Shown: positions 44,135 through 64,000 of the stretch, one piece after another
Layout: the number at the start of each line of letters is the position of its first letter
Position numbering within the stretch: position 1 is the first letter of the stretch
Program-made: the position numbers and the translations under genes
The notes under the pieces: generated by a model
Told to the model about the DNA's origin: nothing
Database searches by the model: none
Seen by the model: the letters and a program-made list of their open reading frames with translations, nothing else
From: an uncultured Bacteroidales bacterium
Lineage (GTDB): Bacteria > Bacteroidota > Bacteroidia > Bacteroidales > VadinHA17
DNA: 64,000 bases
Direction: 5' to 3'
Assembly (NCBI GenBank): GCA_963733455.1
Contig: CAVTDE010000003.1
Span: forward strand, 449,154 to 513,153

Positions 44135-44187
44135 CCCTGTAATATTCCGGACCTTGTGTCTTCCCCGGGAAAGCATACCTTTGCAGA

Positions 44188-45147
44188 ATGTTTGTCAGCA
44201 AATTAATAACAGGGGTAATGTACGGAAGCGCCGACTCTGACCTGCTTTCCCACTGCACATTATGTCCAGGGGAGTGCAAAGTAAACAGGTTTAAGGGTGG
44301 AACCGGTTACTGCCATTCCGATGCCGGGATGAATATCGCCTCCATTTGCATTCACCGGGGAGAAGAGCCGTCAATAAGCGGACCTGAAGGCATATGCAAT
44401 ATATTCTTCTCGGGATGCAACCTCAGGTGTACCTATTGCCAGAATCATGAAATAAGCCATCCGGGTGCCGTATGTCACACAAATTCAATGGGATTTAAAG
44501 AAGCGATTGACACCATTTCCGGGATACTGGATAAGGGAATAAAAGCAATCGGATTTGTCTCACCCTCACACGTTGTCCCACAGGTCAGGGCAATCATAAA
44601 AGAATTGAATTCCAGAGGTCTCAAACCAGTTACGGTATATAACACAAATAGTTACGACAAAAAAGAGACTCTCAGCAGCCTCGACGGAATGATCGATGTT
44701 TATTTACCTGATTTTAAATATGCTTCATCTGAAACGTCAAAACAATTTTCTGATGCTTCCGATTATCCTGAAGTAGCCCTGAGGGCGGTAAGGGAGATGT
44801 ATTATCAGAAAGGCTCCGTCCTGGAGACAGATGAGGAGGGGAGGGCAGTAAACGGGATCCTTATCCGGCATCTGGTCCTGCCCGGACATGTTGAAGAGAG
44901 CAAAAAGGTCCTGCAGATAATTGCTGAAGAGATCTCAACAGGAGTTAATATCTCCCTGATGTCGCAGTATCATCCTGTTCCTGGTGTAAGCGATCATCCT
45001 GATCTGGGAAGGATACTTTACAGGGAAGAATACCAGGAAGTTGTAGATACGATGGAGAAGCTAGGTTTCAGGAACGGATGGGTTCAGGATATGGAGAGCA
45101 ACAGAAATTACAGACCTGACTTCAGGAAAGAAAATCCTTTTGAGTAA
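44188..45147 (+). CDS. Radical SAM protein (PflX / pyruvate formate-lyase-activase-like family)
   Basis: CNLRCTYCQN cluster motif preceded by a Cys-rich N-terminus (CTLCPGECKVNR...GYC). A TACCTTTG box at 44176-44183 sits only 4 nt before this ATG, so the ATG at 44218 is an alternative start. Confidence 0.85.
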   Translation: MFVSKLITGVMYGSADSDLLSHCTLCPGECKVNRFKGGTGYCHSDAGMNIASICIHRGEEPSISGPEGICNIFFSGCNLRCTYCQNHEISHPGAVCHTNSMGFKEAIDTISGILDKGIKAIGFVSPSHVVPQVRAIIKELNSRGLKPVTVYNTNSYDKKETLSSLDGMIDVYLPDFKYASSETSKQFSDASDYPEVALRAVREMYYQKGSVLETDEEGRAVNGILIRHLVLPGHVEESKKVLQIIAEEISTGVNISLMSQYHPVPGVSDHPDLGRILYREEYQEVVDTMEKLGFRNGWVQDMESNRNYRPDFRKENPFE

Positions 45148-48304: not shown

Positions 48305-49021
48305 TTACATGAATTTCTCTCTTTTCTGAAGGTTATAAAGGGCGGCAAGAAGGAAGAGTATGGTTCCGGTAATGAGTATAATACGGTTCTTAAGCGTTAT
48401 TAATGCCCATGCTGCTTCATTGACATCATACGCCGGACGGAAAGGGTTAAGAAATACATTCCACTGACTTTTACGCAATGGTTCCATGAGTATCATGAAG
48501 AAGAGCCCGATAATTATCATTACAACGGCTGTACCGTTTCCGTTCCTTATCACGGTTGAGAGCATGAACGCCATCATACCGAGAAAGAGGACCGGCAGCA
48601 TGATTTGCACGGTAACACTGACAAACCGGAATTTTACTATAAGTATTGATGAGAGGAAAGTAAACAGAAGCATTATGAGAAATGCGATAACAAAGATGAG
48701 GAGGATCCTTACAAGCCATACCTTATACCTGTAGTTGGGGATGCCGAAAAGTATTTCTATTGTACGTGCATCCTGATCGTTCTGGATACCGAAAACCGAG
48801 GGATAAAAGACAAGAAGTATCCCTGAAAATATGAATACTCCGTAAAGGTCGCTCATCCTTGAAACATCATTATCAAGAACATATATCACGGAAAGGCCAA
48901 GATAAAAAAGAACTGAGCCTGCAAGAAACCAGATGAACTTGTTCGCGAAAATGATTCTCAGGTTATAGAGTATCATTTTCTGAAACAGGATGTAATAATT
49001 ATATATTGTTTTGCCCTTCAT
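48305..49021 (-). CDS. ABC-2-type transporter permease (6 TM)
   Basis: 238 aa with six hydrophobic helices. It starts 33 bp after the upstream ATPase-containing gene and is the last gene of the operon. Confidence 0.7.
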   Translation of the reverse strand: MKGKTIYNYYILFQKMILYNLRIIFANKFIWFLAGSVLFYLGLSVIYVLDNDVSRMSDLYGVFIFSGILLVFYPSVFGIQNDQDARTIEILFGIPNYRYKVWLVRILLIFVIAFLIMLLFTFLSSILIVKFRFVSVTVQIMLPVLFLGMMAFMLSTVIRNGNGTAVVMIIIGLFFMILMEPLRKSQWNVFLNPFRPAYDVNEAAWALITLKNRIILITGTILFLLAALYNLQKREKFM

Positions 49022-49054
49022 TACAGTGTGTTTTCTTTTTAAAATATCCTGTCC

Positions 49055-52000
49055 TTAGTTCCCGTTCTTTCGTCTTAACAACCACAAATAGGCATCCTCA
49101 AGGTTAGGAACTGCACTTACTGCATTTTCCCAGGGTGAAGACTCAGAAATAACCCTTACCCTCACATGATCGGCTTCCGACATATGGTGAACCACAAGAT
49201 GTGTTTCAACAAAGCTGTTAAAGTCACCTGCAGGTATATTGAACTGCCAGACATGTCCCTCAGCTTCCCTGGTCATATCGATTGGCTTGCCAAGATATCG
49301 CATTTTGCCCTTGTTAAGAACTGCCACCTGGTTACAGGAACTCGAAATGTCTTCAATGATATGGGTTGAAAAAATAACAATCCTTTCACGGCTCAGCTCA
49401 ACCAGGAGGTTTCTGAACCTGATACGTTCCCTTGGATCGAGGCCTGCAGTGGGCTCATCCACAACAAGTATCCGCGGCAGGTGAAGCAGGATCTGGGCAA
49501 TACCCATCCTTTGTTTCATACCTCCGGAATATGATCCAATTTTCTCATTCCGGTGTTCGTCCATATGTACAGCTTCAAGTACATAGGTAACCCTTGCTTC
49601 CCTGACCTCCGAATCCGTAATGTTCTTAAGCATTGCCTGGTAATGCAGGTATTCGTGGGCTGACATATTTTCATATGTGCCGAACTCCTGCGGAAGGTAG
49701 CCGATCAGCCCCTGAAGTTCCTCGCGCTTAAGCTGCGTGTCGAGACCATTGATCCATACCTTGCCATAACTTTGCTCAAGGATGCCGCAGATTATTCTCA
49801 TCAGAGTTGTTTTCCCTGCACCGTTGGGACCCAGAAGTCCGAACATCCCGTTGCCAATATTAATTGAGACACAGCTGAGCGCTTTGAAAGGCTTTTTCTT
49901 CTTGCCGATAAGCGGCACTGCTGCCACTAACTTGTAAATAGTTTTTCTAATTTCTTTGGCTCTTCCCTCAAGCCGGTAGATATCAATGTTTTCCCTTGAC
50001 AATTTCTGGCCGGTCCTGTAGATAAATAAACCGGTGAACCAGATAATTCCAAGTATCAGAACAACAGCAATATTATTCCATCGCATCTGGAACCAGATAA
50101 GGTTCAAAAGCGGGATGAGCCAGAAAACCGAAAAGTCGGCTGCCATTGAAAACCTCTTAAGGATCTTTTTTTTACCTCCTGCTGTCAGATTTGAAAAGTA
50201 TTCATGAAAACACGACCATATTGATGAAAGGAAGAACCAGGTTACAATGCTGAACAGAAATATCCAGAATCCCGTTTTCAGATAGAAGTATGTGAAATAA
50301 ACGAGAAACCCAAACAGCGGAATCTCCCAGAGGATACGCCCAAGATCTTTCCAGGTCCTGAAATGCTGCTGCAAACCGAGTCTCTCCCTGATCTTTGCTC
50401 CGGCTTTCCATTCCCTGACCCACCTGGAGTCGCGTTCATAGATTTTTACGAGACTTTGTATATGGATATTAATTGGTTCATCAGCCGAAATGACAGTCTC
50501 CCGTGCCTTTCGCAGACTGTTCATTACAAACCAGGTTCCGGCCGGTACAAGGATCAGTACAAGTATCGTTGTTATCATCTTCCACAGGAACCTGTCGATA
50601 TAACTGTATATCAGGAAAGTCAGGAATGCAAAAATCATTATCTGGATGATCTTGTTTTTCCAGCTGAGAGAGTTGAACCAGTCGATTGAGTTTTCAAGAC
50701 CTGTATAAAAAGTCGGGATAAAAATCAGGGTAAGTAGTGTGCTGAGAGAAAGGCCGCCGATGACGGTTATCGCAAACGAGGCACCGATTGCCGAAACATA
50801 TTCAGCCTGTCCCATTGCCAGTGGCACCATCGCAATTACAGTGGTTGAGGCAGTTATCAGGATTGGGCGTAAACGTGCCACACCGGCTGTCATCAAGGCT
50901 CTGTGCCTCCGGTTCCCTCTCTTGCGAAGTATATTTGTATAGTCAATAAGAATAATCCCGTTGTTTACAACAATCCCGATAAGTATCAGGAACCCGGTAA
51001 GTGTGTTGGCATTAAGCAAAGAATTGCCTGTCAGTATCAGGGCGATCAATGATCCCAGGGCTGCCAGGGGAATGCTGAACATCAGAACTACAGGAGTTGC
51101 AAGCGATTCAAAAACCGCCGCCAGGATCATATAAATCAGAAGGAAAGCTATGCCAATAAGGTAATAAAAGTCCTTGAGCTGATTTTCTTCCTGAACTACT
51201 TCCACTGCCAGACCGGCAGGGATATTCAGACCTGAAACAATCGTCTGGATCTCCTCGCGGGCTCCTGCAACAAGGTCTTTCGAATTCTTTATCTCATCGG
51301 TGAAATTATAGGTAACTGTAATTCTTTTTTCCTGATTCTCCCGGTGAATGTTTCCCATACCTGAAGAGAAAACTATATCCGAAAGTTCCTCCATTTCCAT
51401 AACCGAACCAGAAGTATTTGTTACTTCAAGTTTCTTCAGATCATCAATGGTCTTATCGGTGTTCTTTTTTATCTCTCCGTTCTCATCAGCATATTTCAGC
51501 ATTATATCATAGGTCTCTGTTCCCTGGCGGAATGTCGCACCCGACGAATACTCACCTCCGAAAGATGAAAGGGCTACAGCCAGGTTCGCCAGATTGAAAT
51601 TGTTCCTTCCGAGGTAATCCATATCGAACATCAGATGGACTTCAGGTTTGTCTTCCTGGACATTTATTCCGGTGTTGGAGATTGCCGATAGTTTTTCAAC
51701 GTACGATTTGATATCCTCTGCGAGATTCTTCATCTGTGCGAAGTTCTCACCCTTTATTATGATGCTTTCTCTTTGAGATCCTATTCCGAGGAGATTCATA
51801 AAATCCGATCCCGGATTATATGTGTCACCTCCGCCGTTTCCTCCTGTAAATCCGCCGCTGGCCGATAATTCATCCATGCTCACCTCAGCTGCTGAAATAT
51901 TTTTTGTCTTTTCAGAGATATCATTTTTTATCTCAGGGAGCGACCGCTTTGTTTTATCATCCCAGTCTTTTGGCAAATTGATTGTAACGGTAGCTCTTTC

Positions 52001-53794
52001 CTCTTCAATATGGCTTATGATATCTTCCTTTTCGGGAAGAGATGCGAGACGTGATTCTATCTCCGAAACAACGGCATCTGTTTTTTCAAGGGTCGATCCT
52101 CCCGGCATGGTTACACTTAACCTGAAATTGGGAGCCTCGACCTCCTGAGTTGAACTTATGCTTAAAGTAAGGCTTATAAGGAGGGCTGCAAAAAAGATAA
52201 CTAGTGTACCGATAATTGTGGCTGCCGGCTTCCTCATACATGCTTTAAGGATGAGGTAATAGCTCTGTATAAGTCTGTCGTGTATCGAGAGTTTCTGAAA
52301 TATAGACGATTCACTGTTTTTGGATCCGGAGAGCAGATAATAAGTCGCCATCGGGATAAACATGACTGCAACAAGAAGTGAGATCAACAGTGTTGAGATT
52401 ATTGAAACGCCTATGTTCTTTCCAATTATTCTTACAAGGAAATTAGTTGAAAAAATAAATGGGAGAAAGACAATAAGGGTCGTAAGGGTCGACGCAAAAA
52501 TAGATCGCCAGACCTCGGTAGTTCCCTGCTTAACCGCTGTACCCGGATCTTTCCCGAGACCGGCGAGCCGGTATATATTCTCCAGAACCACCACCGAATT
52601 ATCGACAAGCATCCCAATTGCAAGGGCCATCCCTACAAGTGTCAGACTGTTAATTGAAATATCAGCGGCATAGAAAAAGTTAAAGGCCGAATAGACCGAG
52701 ATCGGGATCGATAACCCAATTATGGTTACAAGTCTTATATTCCGGAGGAAGAACCAAAGGATCAGAACGGCCAGGAGACCACCGGTAATCGCAAGATTGA
52801 TGATCTGATTTATATTCTTCTCCATTAACTCGGCGCCGTTATTCTGAACGACGATCTCAACTCCCTGTGAAGCAAGTTTTTTGTTCAGCTCATCTACTTG
52901 ATCAACAGCGTCATGCGATAAGTTAATAAGGTTTGCCTGGTTATCATTAACAAGTGTCATTGTTACGGCATCGAGCCCGTTCACCCTGCTGTAGGAGCTT
53001 TGCTCCTTAACGCCGAAAAATATTTCAGAGATGTCCTTAAGCAGGACAGGTCCGGTTTTATCGACTATTATGCTCCCGATATCTTTTACATCCGTATATT
53101 CCGAGGAAACATTAACGAAAAATTCATCCTGACCGTCAACTACTTTCCCGACAAATGTCTTATCCCTTCCATTATTGTTAAGCAGGTTCCTTACCTGACC
53201 CATTGAAATTCCAAAGGCTTTGCAGGCCTTTTCATTAAGGCGTACCTCTATCGAGTTCTCCTGTCCGCCATAAACCTGAACTCCGGCAATGCCGTCTATA
53301 TTCTCAAACTCCGGTTTAATCTCCCTGTCTGCTATATTCCTGATCCTGTCTATGCCTCCTTCACCTCTGATCTGAAGTTCCATGAATTGATTTGTCAGTT
53401 GCTTCAGGTCAATTTTTATCACATTTATGATAAACTCTTCAGGCAGCGTACTTTTTACAATATTGATCTTTTCCTGAAGCTTCAGATTGGCATATTTCAG
53501 ATCAGCGTTCTGATTATAGTAGATTATTATTGTTCCGTATCTTGAAGTGATGTTCGATTCAATCTTTTCAATCCCCTCAAGTGTTCCAATAGCTCCCTCG
53601 ATTGGAATTATTGCCTGTGTTTCAATATATGACGGATCAAGTTCAAGGGGTGCACCCACCTGTACGATCAATGTCGGGAGCTGAGCATTCGGAAAGAGCT
53701 CAACAGAGAGCCGCTTGTACGAGACATAACCAAGCAGGCTAAGTCCCAGAAAGAACATACAAATGAGAACCCTTCTTTTTATAATGGAATTCAT
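49055..53794 (-). CDS. RND (AcrB/HAE-type) permease continuing without a stop into a 6-TM-anchored ABC ATPase (1579 aa as assembled). The alternative model is two genes: RND 53794-50638 and a membrane-anchored ATPase 50638-49055.
   Basis: Residues 1 to about 1040 form a complete 12-TM RND permease with two large periplasmic loops. Then come 2 TM helices, an NBD first strand (INIHIQSLVKIYE), 4 more TM helices, and then Walker A GLLGPNGAGKTT, signature SGGMKQRMGIAQ, Walker B ILVVDEPTAGLD and a DrrA-type C-terminal tail. Dropping one A from the A5 run (plus-strand T5 at 50655-50659) would end the RND at ...SWKTRSSR* with a TAATG stop/start overlap at 50636-50640. Confidence 0.6.
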   Translation of the reverse strand: MNSIIKRRVLICMFFLGLSLLGYVSYKRLSVELFPNAQLPTLIVQVGAPLELDPSYIETQAIIPIEGAIGTLEGIEKIESNITSRYGTIIIYYNQNADLKYANLKLQEKINIVKSTLPEEFIINVIKIDLKQLTNQFMELQIRGEGGIDRIRNIADREIKPEFENIDGIAGVQVYGGQENSIEVRLNEKACKAFGISMGQVRNLLNNNGRDKTFVGKVVDGQDEFFVNVSSEYTDVKDIGSIIVDKTGPVLLKDISEIFFGVKEQSSYSRVNGLDAVTMTLVNDNQANLINLSHDAVDQVDELNKKLASQGVEIVVQNNGAELMEKNINQIINLAITGGLLAVLILWFFLRNIRLVTIIGLSIPISVYSAFNFFYAADISINSLTLVGMALAIGMLVDNSVVVLENIYRLAGLGKDPGTAVKQGTTEVWRSIFASTLTTLIVFLPFIFSTNFLVRIIGKNIGVSIISTLLISLLVAVMFIPMATYYLLSGSKNSESSIFQKLSIHDRLIQSYYLILKACMRKPAATIIGTLVIFFAALLISLTLSISSTQEVEAPNFRLSVTMPGGSTLEKTDAVVSEIESRLASLPEKEDIISHIEEERATVTINLPKDWDDKTKRSLPEIKNDISEKTKNISAAEVSMDELSASGGFTGGNGGGDTYNPGSDFMNLLGIGSQRESIIIKGENFAQMKNLAEDIKSYVEKLSAISNTGINVQEDKPEVHLMFDMDYLGRNNFNLANLAVALSSFGGEYSSGATFRQGTETYDIMLKYADENGEIKKNTDKTIDDLKKLEVTNTSGSVMEMEELSDIVFSSGMGNIHRENQEKRITVTYNFTDEIKNSKDLVAGAREEIQTIVSGLNIPAGLAVEVVQEENQLKDFYYLIGIAFLLIYMILAAVFESLATPVVLMFSIPLAALGSLIALILTGNSLLNANTLTGFLILIGIVVNNGIILIDYTNILRKRGNRRHRALMTAGVARLRPILITASTTVIAMVPLAMGQAEYVSAIGASFAITVIGGLSLSTLLTLIFIPTFYTGLENSIDWFNSLSWKNKIIQIMIFAFLTFLIYSYIDRFLWKMITTILVLILVPAGTWFVMNSLRKARETVISADEPINIHIQSLVKIYERDSRWVREWKAGAKIRERLGLQQHFRTWKDLGRILWEIPLFGFLVYFTYFYLKTGFWIFLFSIVTWFFLSSIWSCFHEYFSNLTAGGKKKILKRFSMAADFSVFWLIPLLNLIWFQMRWNNIAVVLILGIIWFTGLFIYRTGQKLSRENIDIYRLEGRAKEIRKTIYKLVAAVPLIGKKKKPFKALSCVSINIGNGMFGLLGPNGAGKTTLMRIICGILEQSYGKVWINGLDTQLKREELQGLIGYLPQEFGTYENMSAHEYLHYQAMLKNITDSEVREARVTYVLEAVHMDEHRNEKIGSYSGGMKQRMGIAQILLHLPRILVVDEPTAGLDPRERIRFRNLLVELSRERIVIFSTHIIEDISSSCNQVAVLNKGKMRYLGKPIDMTREAEGHVWQFNIPAGDFNSFVETHLVVHHMSEADHVRVRVISESSPWENAVSAVPNLEDAYLWLLRRKNGN

Positions 53795-53803
53795 TACAGT
53801 TTC

Positions 53804-56800
53804 TTATATAAATTTTGAGGGTTGCACTACTGCCGTTTTTCTGCCGGTTATCTTTTCGCTCAAACTGTCAAATACCCAATAGACGCATGGAATTACAATG
53901 AGGGTCAGGAGTGTCGAAGAAATCAGTCCGCCGATAACAGCCAGAGCCATCGGAGATCTTAATGACGCACTTTCTCCGATTCCTATGGTCAATGGGATAA
54001 GTGCAAGAATGGTTGTCAGGCTTGTCATCAGGATCGGCCTTATCCTTTGGCTCCCTGCCATCACAATCGCTTCCTTCTTTCCGACACCTTTTTCGCGAAG
54101 CTGATTGATCCTGTCAATAAGGAGTATGGCATTATTGACGGCAATTCCTCCAAGCATTATGATGCCGATATAGGCCATCATATTAAGGCTTTTTCCAAGT
54201 AAGAAGAATGTAAGGACTGTCCCGACTCCTGCCAGTGGTATTGTAAGCATTATTACGAATGGCTGGATAACCGATTCAAACTGGGCAGCCAGAACCATGA
54301 AAACAAGGACCAGCGAAAGTATAAGGGCAAAAGTAAGATTTGACATCGACTCCTTACGTTTTAACTCATCTCCCGTAAATTCAATTTTATAATCGGCAGG
54401 CATGGCAATCGCCTTAAACGATGACTCCGATTCTTTAACCACCTGGTCGAGTGGCGCAGTTCCATTAACCATAGCGTAAACATAGCCTGTACGCGACTGG
54501 TTCCTTCGTGTTATTTCTCTCGGGCTGACAATTGTTTTTACATTGGCAAGTTCGCTTAACGGAACTTTTACATTACCAGCTGTTATCATAAGATCCTTCA
54601 GCTGGAGAAGGGTAATATCCCCGAGCTTTATCGTAATATCTTTCATCTCGCCGTCTTTTTCAAAGCTTCCGGCTGATGATCCTTCAAGATAGCTTTTGAT
54701 CTGACTGATAACGTTATCAACAGTCACCTTATAATAACTTGTCTTGAATCTGTCAATTGCAACTTCAACCTCGGGTGTGCCTTCATCTATTGAGGTGGTC
54801 AGGTTATACAAACCCGGGTTTTTAAGAAGAATGGCTTTGGTTTCGTTAACTATTTTTTCGAGCTCTTCATATGCCTTACCCGACACCTCAAGGGCAAACG
54901 GGGCGGATGAGGTTCCAAGGGAGGATTGCAGGGCAGTCTCTTCCCGAGTAAAGCTTACCTCCATATCGGGTATTGTTTTGAGGTAGCTTTCTACAAGACT
55001 TATAGCATCCTCGGTTCTGGATGCAAAGTCGTCGGTGAGAATTACCTTCAGTGAAGCTGTATTTTCACCAATGATCCCTGAAGAAGCGTTTGTTGTTGTG
55101 GTTTTATCCTCTCCTGTCTGGGCATAGATCATTTTAATTTTGCCCGGTAGTAATCCCCTGATGATCTCCTCTGTTTTACCGGCAGTGCTGAAGGTCCTTT
55201 TCAGGTCAGTTCCTTCAGGAAGTTTAAGCTTCACTGTAAATTCTGCTGATTCTGACCTGGGCATAAATTCACTCCCAAGTTTTGGGATCAGTAAAGCGGA
55301 AATTGCGAGTAATACTATTGAAAGAACTATTACAAGCCCCCTCTTTTCAACAACTTTTTCAAGGAATTTTTTATACCAGGTAAACCGGATAGTTGTTGAA
55401 ACCGGTTTCCTGTTTTTTTTGTCGGAGAAGAATGTCGAAACAAGCATCGGAATAACTATCATAGCTACAACCAAAGACGAAAGCAGGGCAAAGGCCACAG
55501 TCCAGGCCTGATCCTTAAACATCTCTCCGGATGCTCCGTGGAGGTATACTATTGGAAGGAATACAACAATCGTAGTTACAGTGGATGCTGTAATTGCTCC
55601 CCCGACTTCCCCGGTTCCGGTTATGACAGCGTCTTTCATCGACATTCCTTCTTCATGGTTTCTTGTTATGTTTTCAAGAACCACAATGGCATTGTCTACA
55701 AGCATGCCCGCTCCCAGCGCCAGCCCTCCCAGAGTCATTATATTTAGTGTGAGGTGGTTGAAATACATAAGATTGAAAGTGGCAATTATCGAGATGGGGA
55801 TCGCGACGCTTATTACAAGGGTTGTACCTATTCTTCTTAAAAAAATATAAAGGATAAAGACCGCAAGAAGAATTCCGACGATAAGGGTATTCTGGACCTC
55901 CGTTATTGCATTATGAATATAGTTCCCCTGATCCTGAACTTTTATAAATTCATAACCCGGCAATGCCTTGCCAAGGTCAACGAATGCCTTATCCAGACTC
56001 TTAACCACATCGACAGTATTGAATTTTGGCTCCTTATAGATTGAGAGGCCTACGCAGCGTTCTCCGTTAATGGTAACTATGTTTTCAGGATCCTTGTTTT
56101 CAAATCTTATTGTGGCAACATCCCTGAGGTAAACAGGAACTCTTTCCGATGATGAATTCGAGGTTGCTTCTGCCGTAAGCGATGGCTGCGCTGATGCGGG
56201 CTGCCTGAAACCTATTATAATATTTTCGAGATCGCCAGGATCTTTCAAAACGCTTACTCCTTTTACGACATATTTCAGACCCATATCGACTATTGAGCCT
56301 CCGGAGACGTTTTTGTTGTAATTGCTGATCTGGGCGGCAATGACATCGGAAGAGAGTCCGAATGATTCCAGTACATACTTATTTGTTTCAATAACAACCT
56401 CACTCTCTTCCTTGCCCGTAAGTCTGACATCAGCCACACCCTCAATCCTGACGAGTTCGTTCCTTATGTAGTTCTCGGCAACTTTACGGAGTTCATCCAT
56501 ATTTGTGATTCCCGGATTTTTTAATCCGACGGTCATCACGGGTGCGGCATTCGGATCGTATTGTGAAATAGTAAAACTTTCAAGGTCGGTGTTCTGACTG
56601 AATGAATTAAGCTCTTTCTGAAGATCCAGAAAAGCTTCGTCCATGTCCTTGTTCCAGTCGTATTCAACCGTGATGGTTGCAGATCCGACCCGTGACACTG
56701 ACGACACCTGCGTAACGTCACTCTGCCGCATTGAAAGGGACTCGATCTGGTCGACATAATTCTTTTCAATCTCTTCCGGTGGCCTTTCACCGGCATTCAG

Positions 56801-56947
56801 TTCAATGAAGATCTTGGGATTATTCAGATCGGGAAAAAGGTCCGTTCCAAGCTTGCCGAATGATATAAATCCAAGCAATACTATTCCCAGAACCAACATC
56901 AGGACCGTTACCGGGTATTTGACCGCAAATTGTGCAATTTTATTCAT
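53804..56947 (-). CDS. RND efflux transporter permease subunit (AcrB/MdtB-like)
   Basis: 1047 aa with 12-TM/2-loop RND topology and conserved TM4/TM10 regions (GGLALGAGMLVDNAIVVLENI; GIIMLGGIAVNNAILLIDRI). Confidence 0.93.
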   Translation of the reverse strand: MNKIAQFAVKYPVTVLMLVLGIVLLGFISFGKLGTDLFPDLNNPKIFIELNAGERPPEEIEKNYVDQIESLSMRQSDVTQVSSVSRVGSATITVEYDWNKDMDEAFLDLQKELNSFSQNTDLESFTISQYDPNAAPVMTVGLKNPGITNMDELRKVAENYIRNELVRIEGVADVRLTGKEESEVVIETNKYVLESFGLSSDVIAAQISNYNKNVSGGSIVDMGLKYVVKGVSVLKDPGDLENIIIGFRQPASAQPSLTAEATSNSSSERVPVYLRDVATIRFENKDPENIVTINGERCVGLSIYKEPKFNTVDVVKSLDKAFVDLGKALPGYEFIKVQDQGNYIHNAITEVQNTLIVGILLAVFILYIFLRRIGTTLVISVAIPISIIATFNLMYFNHLTLNIMTLGGLALGAGMLVDNAIVVLENITRNHEEGMSMKDAVITGTGEVGGAITASTVTTIVVFLPIVYLHGASGEMFKDQAWTVAFALLSSLVVAMIVIPMLVSTFFSDKKNRKPVSTTIRFTWYKKFLEKVVEKRGLVIVLSIVLLAISALLIPKLGSEFMPRSESAEFTVKLKLPEGTDLKRTFSTAGKTEEIIRGLLPGKIKMIYAQTGEDKTTTTNASSGIIGENTASLKVILTDDFASRTEDAISLVESYLKTIPDMEVSFTREETALQSSLGTSSAPFALEVSGKAYEELEKIVNETKAILLKNPGLYNLTTSIDEGTPEVEVAIDRFKTSYYKVTVDNVISQIKSYLEGSSAGSFEKDGEMKDITIKLGDITLLQLKDLMITAGNVKVPLSELANVKTIVSPREITRRNQSRTGYVYAMVNGTAPLDQVVKESESSFKAIAMPADYKIEFTGDELKRKESMSNLTFALILSLVLVFMVLAAQFESVIQPFVIMLTIPLAGVGTVLTFFLLGKSLNMMAYIGIIMLGGIAVNNAILLIDRINQLREKGVGKKEAIVMAGSQRIRPILMTSLTTILALIPLTIGIGESASLRSPMALAVIGGLISSTLLTLIVIPCVYWVFDSLSEKITGRKTAVVQPSKFI

Positions 56948-56952
56948 ACCGG

Positions 56953-58005
56953 CTACTTAATGATTTTTACTTTCGACCGGTTGCTGAGGGTTTCAAAACC
57001 TGATGTTACAACGCGTTCATTTTTTGTAAGTCCCCTCAAAATTTCAATGTCTGAAATATTTTCAAGCCCTGTTTCAACAATCCGTTCCGCTGCAACTCCC
57101 CTGTCAATGACAAATACGGTTTTCCCTTTCTGACGTGACAGCACGATATTCTTAGGAATAACTATTACCGAGTCTTTATGGTTGGTTACGATATCAGCTT
57201 TGACAAACATACCGGGTCTTAAAAGATAATCTGAATTCTCAATTGAAATGTTACCCTTAAATGTTCTGGTATCGGGATTAATTGCAGGCGAAAGCTGTGT
57301 TACCCTTCCCACGATGGTGTCACCCGGAATGGTATAGTTTGTAAGGTTTACCGGTTGCCCCGGTTTAATGTCATTTATATATTTTTCAGGAAGCTGGACC
57401 TCCATATACATGATCTGGTAATCCATAATTTTTGAGATTACCGATCCGGTCTCGACCTGAGTTCCCTGGGTATGGTAGGGAAGATCGACTATCACTCCGC
57501 TTATCGGTGCCGATATTCTGGTCTTATCCATCTGAAGCTTAGCGCTTTCAAGATTGGTTTTGGCATTTTCATAGTTCATCCCTGCTGTCTTAAGTTCCTT
57601 AAGTGTTACACCACCTTTTTCATACAACGATTCCTGCTTCCTTAATTCACTTTCGGTAAGCTCAAGATTAAGCTGGGTAGTCTCGAGTTTGACGGAGTTG
57701 ACATATTCCCTGTCCTCAAGCCGGGCAATCAGGTCGCCCGCCTGAATTCTGTCGCCAAGCTGCCAGGTCCGGTTGGTACGTGGATTCTTTTCAAGAAAGT
57801 AGGCAGCCGGTATCTTCGATTTGATTTCAACTTCTCCCTTTGGGAAAGCGGTCCCTGTTGTATTCACAAACTCCTCTATAGATTTTAGTCTTATCTCCTC
57901 CACCGATACCGGGATTTCAACATCGGCAGCAAGGTTCTCATCCCTGTTCCGGCATGCGGTAATCGACATAAGTGCAGCAGCTATTATTAGAAGACTCTTT
58001 TTCAT
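56953..58005 (-). CDS. RND efflux periplasmic adaptor subunit (lipoprotein)
   Basis: Lipoprotein signal MKKSLLIIAAALMSITAC at ATG 58005 (the track uses the GTG at 58029). It has coiled-coil hairpin and barrel-sandwich segments typical of the MFP family. Confidence 0.9.
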   Translation of the reverse strand: MKKSLLIIAAALMSITACRNRDENLAADVEIPVSVEEIRLKSIEEFVNTTGTAFPKGEVEIKSKIPAAYFLEKNPRTNRTWQLGDRIQAGDLIARLEDREYVNSVKLETTQLNLELTESELRKQESLYEKGGVTLKELKTAGMNYENAKTNLESAKLQMDKTRISAPISGVIVDLPYHTQGTQVETGSVISKIMDYQIMYMEVQLPEKYINDIKPGQPVNLTNYTIPGDTIVGRVTQLSPAINPDTRTFKGNISIENSDYLLRPGMFVKADIVTNHKDSVIVIPKNIVLSRQKGKTVFVIDRGVAAERIVETGLENISDIEILRGLTKNERVVTSGFETLSNRSKVKIIK

Positions 58006-58025
58006 TTTATCTGTTATTATGATTA

Positions 58026-59510
58026 TCACTGATTTTCCAATTTCATTACCGGAGTTACCGGTTCTTTTTTCTCAAAATCGTAAAGTGTCTGAATTTTAAG
58101 ATTTAATAGTTCAAGTTTATAGGAGATCAAAGCATTGGTATATGCAAGTTGCTTCTCCGACAGCTGATTCTGATAGATGTTAAGATCCATACCGGTAAGA
58201 TCTCCATTCTTATATTTTTCAAGATTCAGATCGTAGGTAAGCTGAGCGTTGGTAACCGATTGCCTTGCTATTCCGATCTGATTCTGAAGATTTAACAGAT
58301 TCCGATAGACCTTTCTGACATCAAGGATAATATTATTCTGTTCCTCGTCAAGGCTTATTTTTTCTGTCTCGATCGAAGCTTCTGTTGCCTTAACCCTTGA
58401 TTTCTTTTCACCCCAGTCCCATAGCGGGATTGTAAATGATAATGAAATGTCCTCATTATTAGTAGGATTTGCATAGACATCGCTTAGTTTCTCATTATCC
58501 CCAAAGAGCCCTATTGACAATCCGAGACTTCCCTTGAATTCATTCAGAGCTTTTGTCTGAATAAGGTCAAATTGAGAGTTCTCTATCGAAATTGATCTTT
58601 GTCTCAGCTCCATCCTGTTCGACAGACCCTGATCGATTGCAAAAGCAATATCAACCTGAATGGTATCAACAGCTATATTTGGCAAAACCAGAAGATCTTC
58701 ATAAAGACTCATCCCAATAAGGAGTTTGAAATCGTCCTTTGCATTTTCGAGAAGCACCTGTTTGTTTTCATAATCCGATTTTGTTGTGGCAAGATTCAGT
58801 TCTGCCTGGAACATCTCCTCACGTGCAGTGATTCCTGCTTCAACTTTATTTTTGGAGACCTCGTAGCTTTTCTGCATGTTCTGATATGCCTGGTTTGAGA
58901 TCTCCAGACTCTGTTGTTGCTGGTAGACATAATAAAAAGCCTGTGTTACTCCTTTTTCAAGTGCCAGGAGTTGTATTGCGTATCCAAGCTGTGAGTTCTC
59001 GAGCGCCAGCTGAAGCTCCTTAAGCTGAAGTTTTGTCCTGTTGTAAGTAAAAAGCGGCTGATCGAGATTCAGGGAAAGGCTATTGCTGAATCCTTTGGTT
59101 GTCAGATTGGTAAACTCACTGAATGAGTCCTTGTACCCAAACCGGTTTACCAGCGATACACGTGCATCAGTCAGGACAATAGGTTGTGAAACCGTAAACA
59201 GGCCGTAACTCTCAGTTGTCTTTGTTGTGTTCCATTGTGAAATCAGATCGTTGAATGCCCTGATCTGACTGTACCCTATCGGATTGACAGAAAGTGAGAA
59301 ATTGGATTTTAATGCAGCATTCTGCGCATTAAGGTTCTCCTGGCTCCTGATCAGCCCCAGTCTGGTTTTTTTAATTGTCGGACTGTTCGATTCGGCAATG
59401 TTCAGCGCCTGTTCGAGGGTCAGGCCTTGTTGGGAAAATAGAACCAGCGGAAGTATAAAAAACAACAGGATTAAAGTTCCGGCCTTAATGTTAAGTTTTG
59501 TTATATTCAT
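58026..59510 (-). CDS. TolC-family outer membrane efflux protein
   Basis: 494 aa with a signal peptide and the duplicated alpha-helical/beta-barrel TolC repeat pattern (LTLEQALNIAESNSP..., ...ARQSVTNAQLTYDLNLEKYKNG). Confidence 0.9.
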   Translation of the reverse strand: MNITKLNIKAGTLILLFFILPLVLFSQQGLTLEQALNIAESNSPTIKKTRLGLIRSQENLNAQNAALKSNFSLSVNPIGYSQIRAFNDLISQWNTTKTTESYGLFTVSQPIVLTDARVSLVNRFGYKDSFSEFTNLTTKGFSNSLSLNLDQPLFTYNRTKLQLKELQLALENSQLGYAIQLLALEKGVTQAFYYVYQQQQSLEISNQAYQNMQKSYEVSKNKVEAGITAREEMFQAELNLATTKSDYENKQVLLENAKDDFKLLIGMSLYEDLLVLPNIAVDTIQVDIAFAIDQGLSNRMELRQRSISIENSQFDLIQTKALNEFKGSLGLSIGLFGDNEKLSDVYANPTNNEDISLSFTIPLWDWGEKKSRVKATEASIETEKISLDEEQNNIILDVRKVYRNLLNLQNQIGIARQSVTNAQLTYDLNLEKYKNGDLTGMDLNIYQNQLSEKQLAYTNALISYKLELLNLKIQTLYDFEKKEPVTPVMKLENQ

Positions 59511-59568
59511 TTTTTAAAAGCTATATTATAATATTCTTACATTCCTTCCTTTTAAATTTCAACCCCCT

Positions 59569-62500
59569 TTAATTCTGTAGCACCCACCTGACTGCATCGC
59601 CGATAACATAATTTCCGATCGATTGATTTGTCAATTCAACCTTTGCCGTATCTGATGACAGATAATATCTCCCCAGGTTATTCCAGCCGCTTTCGGCATT
59701 TTCATATTCCAGGGTTATCTCTTCAGTTCCCTGATCGTGAAAGATCTTGAAATGAAGGTCCCTGCAGGGACTTGAGCCTCCCTTTCCCCCTTCGCCCGGG
59801 GGAGGCGGCGGAGCGGCCGGACCACTGGTTCGGACCACAATCCCGTCGCTTGCTTTGCCGATGTAGGTGTAAATATCATAATAACCCGATTTGGCCAATG
59901 GAGCCTTCCATGTCAGGACCTTGTCTCCTGTCCCGCTCCGGGTATAGATTGAGGAACGTATATATTTGCCATAATATGACGACTGTACAACAGGTTGCCA
60001 GAATTCCGGAGCCCTCATAAGCCTTATCTGCTCATAGGTCTGCCCGTTCCTGCTTTTAACACCCAGAAGTCTTTTCAGAGGGCTGTCGGTATTTTGCCTT
60101 GTGAAAATAAATCCGGGGTCTTCATTGTCAACAATAGTTTCAAAGGGATCTTTAAGGTCAGGGATCCTGGTAATGGTCTCCGTATTTTCAAGTTCCGTTA
60201 CCTTGCTTTTTGCTTTTATTATTTCTTCGATTGGCATAATGATTTCTCCCGGTATGTTTTTGGCAAACAATGTGTTTATCTGCAATGCTCTGGGCTGGGC
60301 ATCAAGAACTATACTAATACTTTTTGCTTCTGCCGGTCCAAGGAATATTATTTTAGTGATGTCTGAAGCCTCCATTCCGCGGCCTTGCCCGGATACCTTG
60401 AAACTGCCGCCACCCCCGGCGAATTCAACAACTTCCATTACGGGTCCACCTCCGGGTTCACCAGCCCCGCCCATCCTGAATGACACATTGAATAAGCCTG
60501 CCACCGGCTCAGGGTTTGATGCCGTAAATGTTACCAGGTATCTCGAACGGTCCCCTACAATGATTTCGCTGGCTTTAAGATTTGAAAAAAGAAATCCGGG
60601 CTGTTCTTTCCTGCTGAACCAATCGCTGAGAAACGGGTAGAATTCAAAACCAAACTTCTGTTTTATATCTTCATTCATCCTGGTAATATCAACGCTCTTA
60701 AATTTGTTGTCATCAATATATTTTTTAAACCAGGTTTTGAATTCTTCAATTCCTGCCTTTGATCTTAAAAGATTAAAAAGGAAATCACCCTTAAGTGTCA
60801 ATATTGAACGGATCGTGTCACCCCCAGGATTCCGGGCAAGCAGTTCTTTAAAGCTTTTCTCTTTCAGGACAAGATTTGCCTTGTCGTTTTCCGAGAGCCC
60901 GCCGTTAAAATCAAAGAAATCGAAACCTTCGGTTGGGGCTGTAACCTTTTGGAGATGAGTTTCAAAAACAGCATTGATCACAGGATACTCTTCTGAGTAG
61001 AAATTGTTCTTAAAGAAGTAGAAGCTGGGCCCAAGGCGGTACCTTACCGGTTCATTCCAGGCAACGCCGTTTTCGTACCTGAAGCGTTCACCGCTTATAA
61101 AAGTATTACGTATGAAATCGTTGAATATTCTGACCTGGAGCTCTTTATCGGTGAGCACCTGGTTATTGCGCGCCATTCTTTTCTTCTGGCGGGTAAATCG
61201 TTTGGCAAATCCGGCATTCTGCAGTGTTGTAAGTCTTTCAGGAAGGAGGACCATTGAGGGCTGGACTTCTGCCCTTGTTTGTGTATTTCTCCGCGGGTAA
61301 GAATAGTACTGAACGGGCACTTCAATAATACTCAGTGTTTTAAAAGGATATTTTGTGGAGAAGTTGGTTTCGAGTTCTCTCATTACACCCGATATCAGTA
61401 ATGATAAGGTGTCTTTTAATTCTGCAAGGTCCTTTTTATAAAAATCATTACCAGGGAAATGGTAACTGAGATATTCGACCGAATCAACCCTGAGCGTATC
61501 CGTCAAATAGTTTCCGATAGCAAGTGTAAGTCCTGTTAGCGGTGTTTCAGAACTGAAACTACAGGTTCCGTTTCCAGGTTGTGATTTTCCCTGAGATACA
61601 GCTGAAAGGCCATTTTTAGTGTGAACATTAATAGTATATCTTGTAAAATCAATTTTAATCTTTGCCGGGTTTGACGGATAGTAATTTAGTCCTGCAACAG
61701 GATACCAGTGAGATTCAGGTGTAAGAAGCACATAGTTTTCTGTAAGAAATGCCTGCCGTTTATTTACATTGACCATTTCAATCCTGTATGGATTCTCTTT
61801 TATGTTATCGGCGTAGTCGGGGAAACAGAAAGATTCATTGACGCTACCTGAATAAAATATCGTAAGGGAGTCGGAAAGACCTGTCTCCAGCTTGTTACCT
61901 GGAACAATTTCAATGATCTGATTTATCCTCTTGAATTCCAGTTCCTTATCAGCAGAGGTAATTTTTAAAACTATGAGGGATGGATTAAGTGAAAACAGGT
62001 AAGTATCAAGAGGTTCGTTATTCTGATTGGTTATTTTGAGTCCGGCTGATGCTTCAAATGTTACACCTTTGTGATCAAAATCAATGATTGCATTTTCGAC
62101 TGATGGAAACATCCGGTTTTCATACTGCCTGTCAGTCTCAATAACCAGCTTTTTGTCGTTGACTTTTCTGCTGTAATCACCCCAGGTGTTTGATCCTGTA
62201 ATAAAGGCACCCGACGAAAAAACAATGAGCATTACTATTGTAAGGACTTTATGGAACTTTGATTGGGGCAACCGTTTGAACAGGAGAATAGTACCCATTA
62301 CCATTGCCATTCCAAGAAAAAAGTAAAGCAGTCTCTGGTTTATAATAAGATTCAGGTTATCAAATCCTATTACTCCCGATTTAAAGACAGGAAGTCCAAA
62401 TGCCATGTAATCGAAGATCGATCCTGCCCTGAAATACAGATAGAACATATCAAGTGCCGCATAGCCAAGAAGTATCATAAAGGTAATTGCCTGATTCCTT

Positions 62501-63015
62501 ATAACCTGCATCAGCATAAAGGCAAGTCCGAGGCTGAAGACAATTGTGGGGACGCAAATGATGAGAAGGTAACTCAGATATGACATCAGATCGATTGTCA
62601 TGCTGTTTGAGATAATGTTCATCAGCAGGCCAATGCAGAGGATAATTACATCGAGACCAAGGAAAAGCCTGAGGATACCTATTGTTTTCCCCGTTATGTA
62701 CTCGAAGTTCGACATTGAACGCGTGTAAAGAACTTCATTTGTGTCAAGCTTCTTATCCTGTTTCAGGAAGTCAGAAGCCAGAAAGATCACTATAAAGGCC
62801 TGCCCTATATTCAGAAGGTAAAGATTAATAAGCGGAACCGACGAAGGAATTGCAACAAGGTCCCAGGGTTCGTCACCAATTGGTGAGAACAGGCCGATAT
62901 TCATAAACGTAAGAATAAAAAGGGCTCCAATTGAAAAGAGCCTGAAAAACCAGCTTCGTCTCAGGGTTTTTGCCTCGTATTGTGCAACTGTGCGGATGTT
63001 ATGGAGGAATGACAT
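59569..63015 (-). CDS. ABC-2-type permease fused to a large M1-aminopeptidase-like (non-catalytic) ectodomain and a C-terminal golvesin/CBM-like beta domain
   Basis: 1148 aa with about 7 TM helices in the first 270 residues. The middle region follows the M1 N-domain/catalytic-domain layout but has no GAMEN and no HEXXH anywhere. There are Gly/Pro-rich linkers (GGAGEPGGGP, AAPPPPPGEGGKGG). The C-terminus ...GWNNLGRYYLSSDTAKVELTNQ...GDAVRW resembles the golvesin C-terminal-like domain. Confidence 0.7.
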   Translation of the reverse strand: MSFLHNIRTVAQYEAKTLRRSWFFRLFSIGALFILTFMNIGLFSPIGDEPWDLVAIPSSVPLINLYLLNIGQAFIVIFLASDFLKQDKKLDTNEVLYTRSMSNFEYITGKTIGILRLFLGLDVIILCIGLLMNIISNSMTIDLMSYLSYLLIICVPTIVFSLGLAFMLMQVIRNQAITFMILLGYAALDMFYLYFRAGSIFDYMAFGLPVFKSGVIGFDNLNLIINQRLLYFFLGMAMVMGTILLFKRLPQSKFHKVLTIVMLIVFSSGAFITGSNTWGDYSRKVNDKKLVIETDRQYENRMFPSVENAIIDFDHKGVTFEASAGLKITNQNNEPLDTYLFSLNPSLIVLKITSADKELEFKRINQIIEIVPGNKLETGLSDSLTIFYSGSVNESFCFPDYADNIKENPYRIEMVNVNKRQAFLTENYVLLTPESHWYPVAGLNYYPSNPAKIKIDFTRYTINVHTKNGLSAVSQGKSQPGNGTCSFSSETPLTGLTLAIGNYLTDTLRVDSVEYLSYHFPGNDFYKKDLAELKDTLSLLISGVMRELETNFSTKYPFKTLSIIEVPVQYYSYPRRNTQTRAEVQPSMVLLPERLTTLQNAGFAKRFTRQKKRMARNNQVLTDKELQVRIFNDFIRNTFISGERFRYENGVAWNEPVRYRLGPSFYFFKNNFYSEEYPVINAVFETHLQKVTAPTEGFDFFDFNGGLSENDKANLVLKEKSFKELLARNPGGDTIRSILTLKGDFLFNLLRSKAGIEEFKTWFKKYIDDNKFKSVDITRMNEDIKQKFGFEFYPFLSDWFSRKEQPGFLFSNLKASEIIVGDRSRYLVTFTASNPEPVAGLFNVSFRMGGAGEPGGGPVMEVVEFAGGGGSFKVSGQGRGMEASDITKIIFLGPAEAKSISIVLDAQPRALQINTLFAKNIPGEIIMPIEEIIKAKSKVTELENTETITRIPDLKDPFETIVDNEDPGFIFTRQNTDSPLKRLLGVKSRNGQTYEQIRLMRAPEFWQPVVQSSYYGKYIRSSIYTRSGTGDKVLTWKAPLAKSGYYDIYTYIGKASDGIVVRTSGPAAPPPPPGEGGKGGSSPCRDLHFKIFHDQGTEEITLEYENAESGWNNLGRYYLSSDTAKVELTNQSIGNYVIGDAVRWVLQN

Positions 63016-63031
63016 AAGTACCTGCTATGTG

Positions 63032-63925
63032 TTATTCAATGATAGTGGTGTTAAGCTTATGTTCCATAAAATAAACATACGCATGTTCAATATTTGGCAC
63101 TATGGCTGTTGAGGCATACTCAGGGGTATCGTCGGACACTATCTGGACTTCCCATCCTGATTCAACAGGTATTGTTGATATTACATTGTATTGTTCCTTG
63201 ACTTTTTCATACTCAAAAGGTGTGAGATGGAGCTTAAATACATGTCCTTCAGCATGTTTCACAAGATTCTCCGGCGAACCGGAGAATACAAGCTCTCCCC
63301 TGTTCAAAAGTGCCATACCCTGGCAGGTTGAAGATATATCTCCGACAATATGGGTTGATAAAATTATCGTGACATCGTTCCGGCTAAGCTGCGATAATAT
63401 ATTCCGGAACCTTATCCTTTCATCAGGGTCAAGTCCGGTTGTGGGCTCATCAACAATGATGATCCTGGGATTGCCGATGAGTGCCTGAGCAATTCCCAGT
63501 CTTCTTTTCATACCTCCCGAAAGCCTGTTTGCCTGCCGGTCACGCACTTCAAGCAATCCTACCTGATCGAGAAGTCTGTCAACCTCTTTGATCCTTTCTT
63601 TTCTGCTTTTTAGTCCTGCAAGAGCACCGGAGTAATCGAGGAACTCCCATGTCTTAAGGGATGTAAAAAAACGGAAATCCTGCGGAAGATAACCCAGCAT
63701 GGTCCTTAATTCCTTCCTGTGCTTCTGTATGTCCCTTCCATCTATAAGGACCAATCCTGAAGTCGGCTTCATCAAAAGAACCATAATGCGCATAAGGCTT
63801 GATTTTCCCGCGCCGTTAGGCCCCAGAAGACCGAACATTCCAGTACCGAATTCAAGGTTAATGTCTTTTAAAGCATGATTGCCGTTCGGGTATATCTTGT
63901 TAAGTCCCTGAATTTCAATTTTCAT
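63032..63925 (-). CDS. ABC transporter ATP-binding protein (ABC-2/DrrA subfamily with a C-terminal accessory domain)
   Basis: 297 aa with Walker A GLLGPNGAGKSS, Q-loop LGYLPQ, signature LSGGMKRRLGIAQ and Walker B IIIVDEPTTGLDP. It is a paralogue of the ATPase part of 49055-50638. Confidence 0.93.
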   Translation of the reverse strand: MKIEIQGLNKIYPNGNHALKDINLEFGTGMFGLLGPNGAGKSSLMRIMVLLMKPTSGLVLIDGRDIQKHRKELRTMLGYLPQDFRFFTSLKTWEFLDYSGALAGLKSRKERIKEVDRLLDQVGLLEVRDRQANRLSGGMKRRLGIAQALIGNPRIIIVDEPTTGLDPDERIRFRNILSQLSRNDVTIILSTHIVGDISSTCQGMALLNRGELVFSGSPENLVKHAEGHVFKLHLTPFEYEKVKEQYNVISTIPVESGWEVQIVSDDTPEYASTAIVPNIEHAYVYFMEHKLNTTIIE

Positions 63926-64000
63926 ACATCAATCCTACTTGTTATTGCCGTTTGGTAGCATATTAATTTGACGTATAAAAGACGGTTAAAATTTCAAATG

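Follow-up and report, generated by a model that had tools for sequence, protein, structure and literature searches.

Tripartite pumps are classed by their energy source, which is the proton gradient for the resistance-nodulation-division (RND) and major facilitator superfamily (MFS) types and ATP for the ATP-binding cassette (ABC) type. RND pumps take their substrates from the periplasm or the outer leaflet and cooperate with single-component exporters of the inner membrane; MdtBC is a 2:1 heterotrimer, and in E. coli YbhGFSR and YhiI-RbbA-YhhJ couple ABC-2 transporters with adaptors. Here, we describe an operon of an uncultured Bacteroidales bacterium (VadinHA17 lineage) in which an RND permease and an ABC ATPase form a single polypeptide. 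The operon occupies positions 48305-63925 of a stretch of 64,000 nucleotides (GenBank assembly GCA_963733455.1, contig CAVTDE010000003.1, positions 449,154 to 513,153 of the forward strand), which is referred to as the window. The listing of open reading frames (ORFs) gives seven genes here, all on the minus strand: a free ABC ATPase (63032-63925; 297 aa; the first gene of the operon), a large ABC-2-like permease that we call BigPerm (59569-63015; 1148 aa), a TolC-family outer-membrane factor (OMP; 58026-59510; 494 aa), a lipoprotein adaptor (MFP; 56953-58029; 358 aa), a free RND permease, RND-1 (53804-56947; 1047 aa), the RND-ATPase fusion (49055-53794; 1579 aa in one stop-free ORF) and SmallPerm, a six-helix ABC-2-type permease (48305-49021; 238 aa). 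The ABC_tran, OEP, RND-type MFP (above the cut-off) and ACR_tran identities were confirmed with Pfam and NCBIfam. Successive genes are separated by 16, 58, about 20, 5, 9 and 33 bp, or overlap, in agreement with a preliminary description of the locus that had all genes on the minus strand with gaps of 58 bp or less. That description had counted eight genes, with RND-2 and a membrane-anchored ABC ATPase as separate modules; the number is seven, since 49055-53794 is a single ORF without a gene boundary and encodes one fused polypeptide. Its overall composition of one outer-membrane channel, one adaptor, two RNDs and two ABC-2-type modules stands, but the four separate inner-membrane modules do not.

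MdtABC-TolC and MuxABC-OpmB are similar to this system in having tandem RND paralogues with one adaptor, to which the operon also adds an OMP, and a heterotrimer of the two RNDs is plausible. The operon RNDs are nevertheless not orthologues of MdtB and MdtC, lying far below the equivalog cut-offs (376 bits versus 1584 for NF007798 and 353 versus 1774 for NF007905), so of the 'MdtBC-like' pair first proposed the tandem arrangement holds but the orthology does not. The operon also differs from MdtABC and MuxABC in the six additional helices and the ABC ATPase carried by RND-2, in the co-encoded pair of ABC-2 permeases and second ATPase, and in having Asn at the positions of AcrB D408 and K940. 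YbhGFSR and YhiI-RbbA-YhhJ share ABC-2-type ATPases and six-helix permeases with a periplasmic adaptor, and RbbA is among the NCBIfam matches of both operon ATPases; however, these systems have no RND, their ATPases are joined to one another or to an ABC-2 permease and are not known to be joined to an RND, and they have no M1-like ectodomain. MacAB-TolC likewise joins an ABC ATPase to an adaptor and a channel of the TolC type to span the envelope, but MacB, a type VII protein, has the FtsX fold with four helices and a MacB periplasmic domain, whereas the inner-membrane partner of the operon adaptor is the RND pair; no FtsX or MacB_PCD match was found with Pfam in any of the seven operon proteins. 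In NosDFY an ABC-2 permease works with a large periplasmic domain, and NosF is structurally close to the fused ATPase; the complex is a possible model for BigPerm. NosD, however, is a separate β-helix protein for copper delivery, whereas the M1-like domain of BigPerm is fused to the permease of an RND-linked system. The M1 zinc aminopeptidases (PepN, ERAP1 and LTA4H) match the fold of the BigPerm ectodomain, with sequence similarity in the C-terminal part of the catalytic domain, but BigPerm has no HEXXH motif and is anchored to an ABC-2 membrane domain. The RND-ABC fusion, the membrane insertion in the ATPase domain and the M1-like ectodomain on an ABC-2 permease are known from none of these systems. 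A full-text literature search returned no description of an RND-ABC fusion or of an ABC-2 and M1 combination, in line with the earlier remark that no characterized envelope machine of this composition was known to its author. We rate the operon as a new architectural variant of the tripartite efflux machinery.

The RND-ATPase fusion

Pfam places ACR_tran at residues 3-1031 and ABC_tran at residues 1317-1450 of the 1579-residue protein. The order of its parts is RND permease, two-helix transmembrane (TM) hairpin, first strand and A-loop of the ATPase, four-helix membrane insertion and, finally, the remainder of the ATPase domain. The RND-2 part (residues 1-1035; 50690-53794, minus strand, as are all parts of the fusion) scores 541 bits against ACR_tran. 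The hairpin (residues 1049-1091; 50522-50650) joins the last RND helix to the ATPase domain. It is evident from hydropathy and is found as helices 11-31 and 35-64 in an AlphaFold2 (AF2) model of the 545-residue linker and ATPase region (mean pLDDT 83; about 85 for the hairpin); Trp37 in the numbering of this model is nearly invariant. The next segment (NIHIQSLVKIY, residues 1110-1120; 50435-50467), INIHIQSLVKIY, corresponds to the first strand and A-loop of the free ATPase (KIEIQGLNKIY) and is assigned as a β-strand by DSSP on the AF2 model. It is followed by about 180 residues with four membrane helices, and only then by ALSCVSINIGNGMFGLLGPNGAGKT and the rest of the ATPase domain. Hydropathy and the AF2 model both show the four helices of this insertion, which is about 145-190 residues long and sits in the β1-β2 hairpin of the ATPase (residues ∼1124-1267; 49994-50425; model helices 123-137, 141-171, 176-205 and 208-233). 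The ATPase core and C-terminal domain (residues 1302-1579; 49055-49891, stop codon included) score 93 bits against ABC_tran and are modelled with a pLDDT of about 90. As the detached segment is read as a strand and every other strand of the model lies in the ATPase domain, it would complete the ATPase sheet. The ATPase domain is interrupted in its β1-β2 hairpin by a membrane domain, and the 'split' ATPase of the preliminary description is upheld in this form, as a detached strand and A-loop followed by a four-helix insertion.

An alignment of 32 homologues with identities down to 32% shows which residues are retained. The detached Lys83 and Tyr85, the Walker A Lys, the Q-loop Gln, the SGGM signature, the Walker B Asp-Glu and the H-loop His are invariant, and the inserted helices have conserved Trp, Pro and Arg positions, with several of the Trp and Pro residues nearly invariant. 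Judged by these motifs, the fused ATPase domain is catalytically complete. Its structural neighbours according to Foldseek are TM_1403 (PDB code 4yer), NosF, LptB and ABCA, which are ABC-2 or type V ATPases; long alignments to ABCA were disregarded, as their r.m.s.d. was about 20 Å. No match to the six extra helices was found in the Foldseek search with the linker and ATPase model.

The free ATPase has a DrrA/GldA-like ABC-2-type domain (ABC_tran, 110 bits) and an extra C-terminal domain, and it carries Walker A, the Q-loop, LSGGM, the Walker B Asp-Glu and the H-loop. Its best NCBIfam matches are drrA and GldA, both below the cut-off; with 183 and 170 bits the two operon ATPases fall short of the 402.6 bits required for the GldA equivalog TIGR03522. 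Both ATPase domains have the full set of motifs (Walker A, Q-loop, signature, Walker B Glu, H-loop and A-loop aromatic residue). They are 41% identical over 273 residues including the shared C-terminal domain, in accord with their earlier description as paralogues with a common C-terminal tail.

Distribution and gene order

A scan of one genome per GTDB species identified 443 genomes that encode a relative of the linker and ATPase region, and the best 80 of these are all uncultured Bacteroidales metagenome-assembled genomes (MAGs). On translation, 66 of the 80 loci had the fusion as a single stop-free ORF (residue 1 to about 1577), and in the remaining 14 it runs off the contig or is broken within the RND part in N-gapped or frameshifted assemblies. 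Wherever the flank permits, the order BigPerm-OMP-adaptor-RND1-fusion-SmallPerm is constant in Bacteroidales. The idea that the fusion is split elsewhere arose from a word-indexed protein search with the linker and ATPase region that gave only versions of up to 950 aa. It was refuted when the pieces proved to lie at contig ends, at stretches of N or in long-read assemblies with frameshifts, and full-length members of ∼1570 aa are present in the same collection that had given only the fragments.

An exhaustive HMMER search over 1.84 billion cluster representatives returned about 30 clusters (1550-1600 aa) in which the linker and ATPase region is matched over its whole length, with identities down to 32%. 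Six further clusters of 1389-1451 aa, here called variant B, have the RND and the ATPase with a non-membrane insertion of 30-40 residues at the same hairpin. Outside the Bacteroidales set the full-length relatives of the fusion are 32-54% identical to it, and by source name the members come from KSB1, Gammaproteobacteria (OM182), Latescibacterota, Acidobacteriota, Cyclobacteriaceae (Cytophagales) and Rikenellaceae. The fusion arrangement is retained across at least five bacterial phyla. The proteins are named 'hypothetical protein', 'efflux RND transporter permease subunit' or 'ATP-binding cassette domain-containing protein' in the databases, and 'AcrB/ABC-type ... ATPase subunit' by JGI.

The gene content varies around the fusion. 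A gammaproteobacterial locus (L086) has the order ATPase-BigPerm-adaptor-RND1-fusion-small permease, with a Golvesin_C domain in BigPerm and no OMP, and a locus of unknown lineage (L090) has the same order, also without an OMP. The KSB1 locus (L091) consists of adaptor-RND1-fusion-small permease, and L095 has only the fusion and an overlapping 243-residue ABC2_membrane_2 permease. Of the variant B loci, L087 reads adaptor-ATPase-ABC-2 permease-RND1-BigPerm-like protein (902 aa)-fusion-OMP, which are the same seven parts as in the window in another order, the first three in the order of YbhGFS; L089 reads RND1-(membrane domain with Peptidase_M1)-fusion. The conserved core is thus the fusion with a small ABC-2 permease, usually with an adaptor and RND-1, often with the free ATPase and BigPerm and sometimes with an OMP. 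Gene order is kept between phyla despite protein identities of 20-46%, and the synteny whose absence would have counted against the preliminary description proved to be strictly conserved; its extension across phyla strengthens that interpretation, which is upheld in part.

In BLAST comparisons the free ATPase is 45-46% identical to the free ATPases of L086 and L087, and the fused domain is 45% identical to other fused domains; RND-1 is likewise orthologous to the free RND of these two loci and RND-2 to the fused RNDs. As free matches free and fused matches fused for both ATPases and RNDs, both duplications predate the split of the lineages, and the paralogue pairs are ancient.

Companion proteins and surroundings of the operon

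RND-1 matches ACR_tran with 741 bits over profile positions 1-1020 of 1021 and RND-2 over positions 4-1018; the two are 28% identical, and the best PDB sequence match of RND-2 is MdtB (PDB code 9lyq). The positions of the AcrB proton relay were assigned by eye against the AcrB sequence, and the counterparts named here are presumptive to that extent. Those of Asp407 (TM4), Arg971 and Thr978 (both TM11) are kept in both RNDs and in all of the fused homologues inspected. The positions of Asp408 and Lys940 are Asn in both RNDs (LVDN in TM4 and VNN in TM10) and also in the orthologues of both RNDs in the 80 loci, apart from six RND-1 orthologues with DD; the Lys940 position is Asn in most homologues as well, and the Asp408 position is Ser in one variant B protein (P0303). 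Since the unfused RND-1 has the same Asn substitutions, this pattern is not specific to the ATPase fusion. By the Asp407, Arg971 and Thr978 counterparts both RNDs look functional; the term 'proton-driven' used earlier for them is a matter of inference, with Asn in place of Asp408 and Lys940. A Gly-rich or Pro-rich low-complexity loop lies in the periplasmic domain of RND-2 (fusion residues ∼645-675; window ∼51770-51860) and recurs in the distant fused homologues P0258 and P0313.

The adaptor scores 196 bits against TIGR01730 (RND_mfp; cut-off 94.9) and matches Pfam HlyD_D23. Its true start is probably the ATG at 58005 (MKKSLL...ITAC), which is followed by a lipobox. The OMP has a signal-like N-terminus and two OEP repeats (137 bits); it is present in all Bacteroidales loci with enough flank and is missing from the L086, L090 and L091 operons.

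SmallPerm has six TM helices by hydropathy and no periplasmic domain. It directly follows the fusion in the window, in 77 Bacteroidales loci and in L086, L090, L091 and L095, but not in variant B (L087). Its HMM matches the gene at the same position in KSB1 (E = 3e-43), L086 (1.5e-7) and L090 (4e-5), and also the L087 permease (6e-4), and the L087 and L095 small permeases, through which SmallPerm is linked to the ABC-2 type, pass Pfam ABC2_membrane_2. We infer that SmallPerm is the membrane partner of the fused ATPase domain.

The N-terminal membrane domain of BigPerm (residues 1-275; 62191-63015, minus strand) gives seven hydropathy peaks, consistent with an ABC-2-like six-helix core and a seventh helix, and distant orthologues have weak ABC2_membrane_2/4 matches. 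This number of helices would place residues 276-1148 in the periplasm. Comparison of the SmallPerm family with the BigPerm membrane domain by hhalign gave a probability of 86.5% (E = 4.6e-6) over 155 colinear columns, a region that includes what appears to be a degenerate ABC-2 signature after TM2. The two modules had been called paralogous ABC-2 modules, which is true of the ATPases, but the permeases are only remote paralogues.

The ectodomain of BigPerm (residues 276-1148; 59569-62190) has an M1-like fold, β-sandwich domains and a C-terminal Golvesin_C domain (E = 1.3e-12); in the literature we found golvesin only as a Golgi marker of Dictyostelium. The top 50 Foldseek matches of the BigPerm AF2 model in the PDB are all M1 peptidases (E about 1e-9); the alignment behind the model is shallow (65-79% identity), and only the match of the M1-like N-domain is used here. 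Sequence comparisons agree with this fold. Residues 741-799 have a weak Pfam Peptidase_M1 match, the variant B orthologue in L089 has a clear one, and the genuine M1 peptidase of the window matches the BigPerm orthologue of L087 with a BLAST E of 2e-10. With hhalign, residues 682-808 align to residues 368-486 of the M1 peptidase at low probability; AVFETH falls shortly after the third zinc-ligand position, in an alignment with a probability of only 21%. A search of the PDB sequences with BigPerm gave no match even at E = 1. HEXXH is absent from BigPerm, no His pair is conserved in 43 homologues, and GAMEN was not recognized by eye, no formal search for it having been made. The ectodomain is classed as a pseudo-peptidase and presumably serves as a binding module rather than an enzyme. 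BigPerm has 1769 homologues; of the 120 listed, almost none carries a name other than 'hypothetical'. Gly-rich or Pro-rich low-complexity loops also occur in the ectodomain, at residues 849-880 and 1060-1078.

The window ends 75 bp upstream of the free ATPase gene, and the limits of the operon on this side were examined in the source contig (ENA ERZ25039545, contig_81559; locus L085). A spacer of 323 bp lies 5' of the ATPase gene and is followed by a divergent HD-domain gene, so the operon starts at the free ATPase. Terminator-like sites are rarer within the operon than in shuffled sequence and none lies in an internal gap; the Bacteroidetes-type promoter motif TAnnTTTG is also absent from every internal gap. 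The possibility of internal promoters or terminators raised by the preliminary description was in this way answered in favour of one unit. In a relative whose BigPerm is 68% identical, the operon likewise begins with ATPase and BigPerm and is flanked by the same divergent HD and lpx genes. A block of ∼40 nucleotides, AACAnTTGAAATnnTnACCGTCTTTTnTAnGTCAAAT, spans window 63966-64000 and continues in L085 9922-9960, 45-85 nucleotides 5' of the first ATG. Within the spacer only this block is kept between L085 and this relative; it may be a promoter or an operator. A scan of the operon leader, including this block, against Rfam gave no match.

Beyond the HD-domain gene L085 encodes lpxD, lpxC-fabZ and lpxA of lipid A synthesis (5003-9677). 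The HD-domain and lpx neighbours are kept in Bacteroidales relatives (L092-L094 291-4915) and not in other phyla, and we did not adopt them as functional evidence, given this restriction to Bacteroidales and their divergent transcription. In three distant lineages outside Bacteroidota the system adjoins an Fe(II)/2-oxoglutarate dioxygenase-type gene (PhyH, TauD or 2OG-FeII_Oxy_2; L086 75-902, L090 278-1315 and L095 15604-16182), and L090 also has a CmlA-like β-hydroxylase. These neighbours might mean that the substrate is a modified peptide or small molecule, or could be there by chance.

On the other side of the operon, 132 bp downstream of SmallPerm, the window encodes a secreted M1 aminopeptidase (45407-48172, minus strand; Peptidase_M1, 150 bits) with GAMEN, HELFH and NESFADF. 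No convincing terminator lies between the two genes (z-score 0.75). The peptidase had been noted as catalytically intact and directly following on the same strand, which is correct, but it does not belong to the conserved unit: it is found at the same place in only one of ∼80 related loci (L005, the closest relative). The presence of an intact M1 peptidase beside an operon with a dead M1-like ectodomain may be a coincidence or a recent functional recruitment. The peptidase is parted from the rest of the window by rimP-nusA-infB (minus strand) and a radical-SAM gene (plus strand; together 39171-45147), a context that also follows the operon in L002. Further away, on the plus strand, are a starch/maltodextrin cluster (32872-38633) of a GH65 phosphorylase-type enzyme, an α-amylase family protein and a cyclomaltodextrinase, and a 2479-residue ORF (23073-30512) with a SprA_N match of 687 bits (type IX secretion translocon). 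The homologous operon of L002 has a SprA gene nearby as well, and the wider synteny is conserved to that extent.

A proposed composite exporter and the alternatives

The reading that we favour, with a probability of about 0.5, is that the operon encodes one composite envelope exporter that physically couples an ATP-driven transporter of the ABC-2 type (type V) to a tandem-RND tripartite pump. Two fused ATPase domains would dimerize beneath a SmallPerm dimer, giving an ABC-2 exporter or flippase docked beside the RND membrane domain. Exactly two ATPase domains would be provided if two RND-2 and one RND-1 formed a heterotrimer in the style of MdtB2C, which would also reconcile the trimer and dimer symmetry. 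The ABC-2 module would use ATP to carry a hydrophobic or amphipathic, possibly peptide-like, substrate out of the cytoplasm or inner leaflet to the periplasmic face, where the neighbouring RND, driven by the proton gradient, would capture the substrate and expel it through the adaptor and the TolC-like channel. The free ATPase and BigPerm would make up a second, separable ABC-2 module, with the M1-like ectodomain binding or presenting substrate in the periplasm. A fuller version of the composite exporter, which we put forward tentatively, is a new class of dual-energized envelope pump: the two protomers of the RND heterotrimer that bear the fused ATPases would close over an ABC-2 permease dimer embedded beside the RND, ATP and the proton gradient would be coupled, either for obligatory two-step channelling or for ATP-gated cycling of the RND, and the second ABC-2 module with its dead M1 domain would act as a periplasmic receptor.

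Several observations weigh against the composite exporter. RND trimers and ABC dimers are mismatched in symmetry, and as L095 has no adjacent RND-1 the 2:1 heterotrimer cannot be general. Variant B places the small permease by the free ATPase and BigPerm by the fusion, which means that the pairing of ATPases and permeases is not fixed by gene order. The window SmallPerm has no Pfam match of its own, and the BigPerm AF2 model is of low confidence (pLDDT 55), although residues ∼300-390 are well modelled. With Asn at the Asp408 and Lys940 positions, proton coupling of the RNDs is likely but not assured. All of the named carriers are uncultured MAGs, with soil, fen and lake sediment as source habitats.

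The periplasmic domain of BigPerm lends itself to another interpretation, in which the ABC-2 modules transport nothing across the inner membrane and ATP instead drives periplasmic work, as in NosDFY, FtsEX, LolCDE and MacB (mechanotransmission); ATP might, for example, move the M1-like domain so that it captures or unfolds a periplasmic peptide or lipopeptide or passes it to the RND entry site, or the work might consist of gating the pump. A periplasmic domain of ∼870 residues with a peptide-binding (M1) fold and no catalytic motif would suit such a role, the fused ATPase domain has NosF among its nearest structural relatives, one BigPerm homologue is labelled a NosY-type permease by JGI, and an intact secreted M1 peptidase adjoins the operon both here and in the closest relative. 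We nevertheless consider this interpretation rather unlikely: that peptidase is not a conserved neighbour, neither BigPerm nor the free ATPase is encoded in the KSB1 and L095 loci, and a periplasmic domain is altogether lacking in SmallPerm, the protein with which the fused ATPase is constantly paired. It is also unlikely, and somewhat more so, that RND-2 is powered, primed or gated by the fused ATPase on a SmallPerm scaffold, so that the RND would be driven at least partly by ATP or switched on by cellular ATP status. The conserved attachment of the ATPase to the RND C-terminus across phyla would be explained, as would the missing Asp408 and Lys940 counterparts in both RNDs, and the six extra helices could pack on the RND membrane domain. 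The TM4 Asp and the TM11 Arg and Thr are nevertheless kept in all of the fused RNDs inspected, the unfused RND-1 shares the Asn substitutions, and the ATPase domain is always found with a dedicated ABC-2 permease, as is normal for an autonomous ABC transporter.

The symmetry problem would disappear if the free and fused ATPases, BigPerm and SmallPerm made a single heteromeric ABC-2 transporter on the one RND-2 of a heterotrimer with two RND-1. All four ABC parts do occur together in Bacteroidales, L086, L090 and L087, and the swapped adjacency in variant B is what would be expected if there were no fixed pairs; but KSB1 and L095 encode the fusion and a small permease with neither a free ATPase nor BigPerm next to them, a finding that told against the arrangement, and both ATPase sites are fully canonical, lacking the degenerate-site asymmetry that is typical of many ABC heterodimers. 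We regard it as decidedly improbable. That unrelated transporters are merely co-located, or that the fusion is an artefact of assembly or annotation, is effectively excluded. The short versions (950 aa or less) from the first protein search and the genes in pieces at some loci had pointed to an artefact, but assembly gaps, contig ends and frameshifts explain the pieces, the ORF is intact in 66 of the 80 loci and in about 30 divergent clusters, and the linker residues are under purifying selection; mere co-location does not fit with a gene order that is kept between phyla at 20-46% protein identity.

The family has been hidden by pipeline labels such as 'efflux RND transporter permease subunit' and 'hypothetical protein'. 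A membrane domain inside the β-hairpin of an ATPase is not known to have been described for an ABC protein, and the pseudo-M1 domain on an ABC-2 permease points to an unrecognized kind of periplasmic substrate receptor. The conservation of the covalent RND-ABC fusion in five or more phyla suggests that both engines, the proton gradient and ATP, have been retained together in one complex repeatedly during evolution. If the composite exporter is correct, the operon would provide a built-in model for how cytoplasmic and inner-leaflet substrates reach the periplasmic entry sites of RND pumps.

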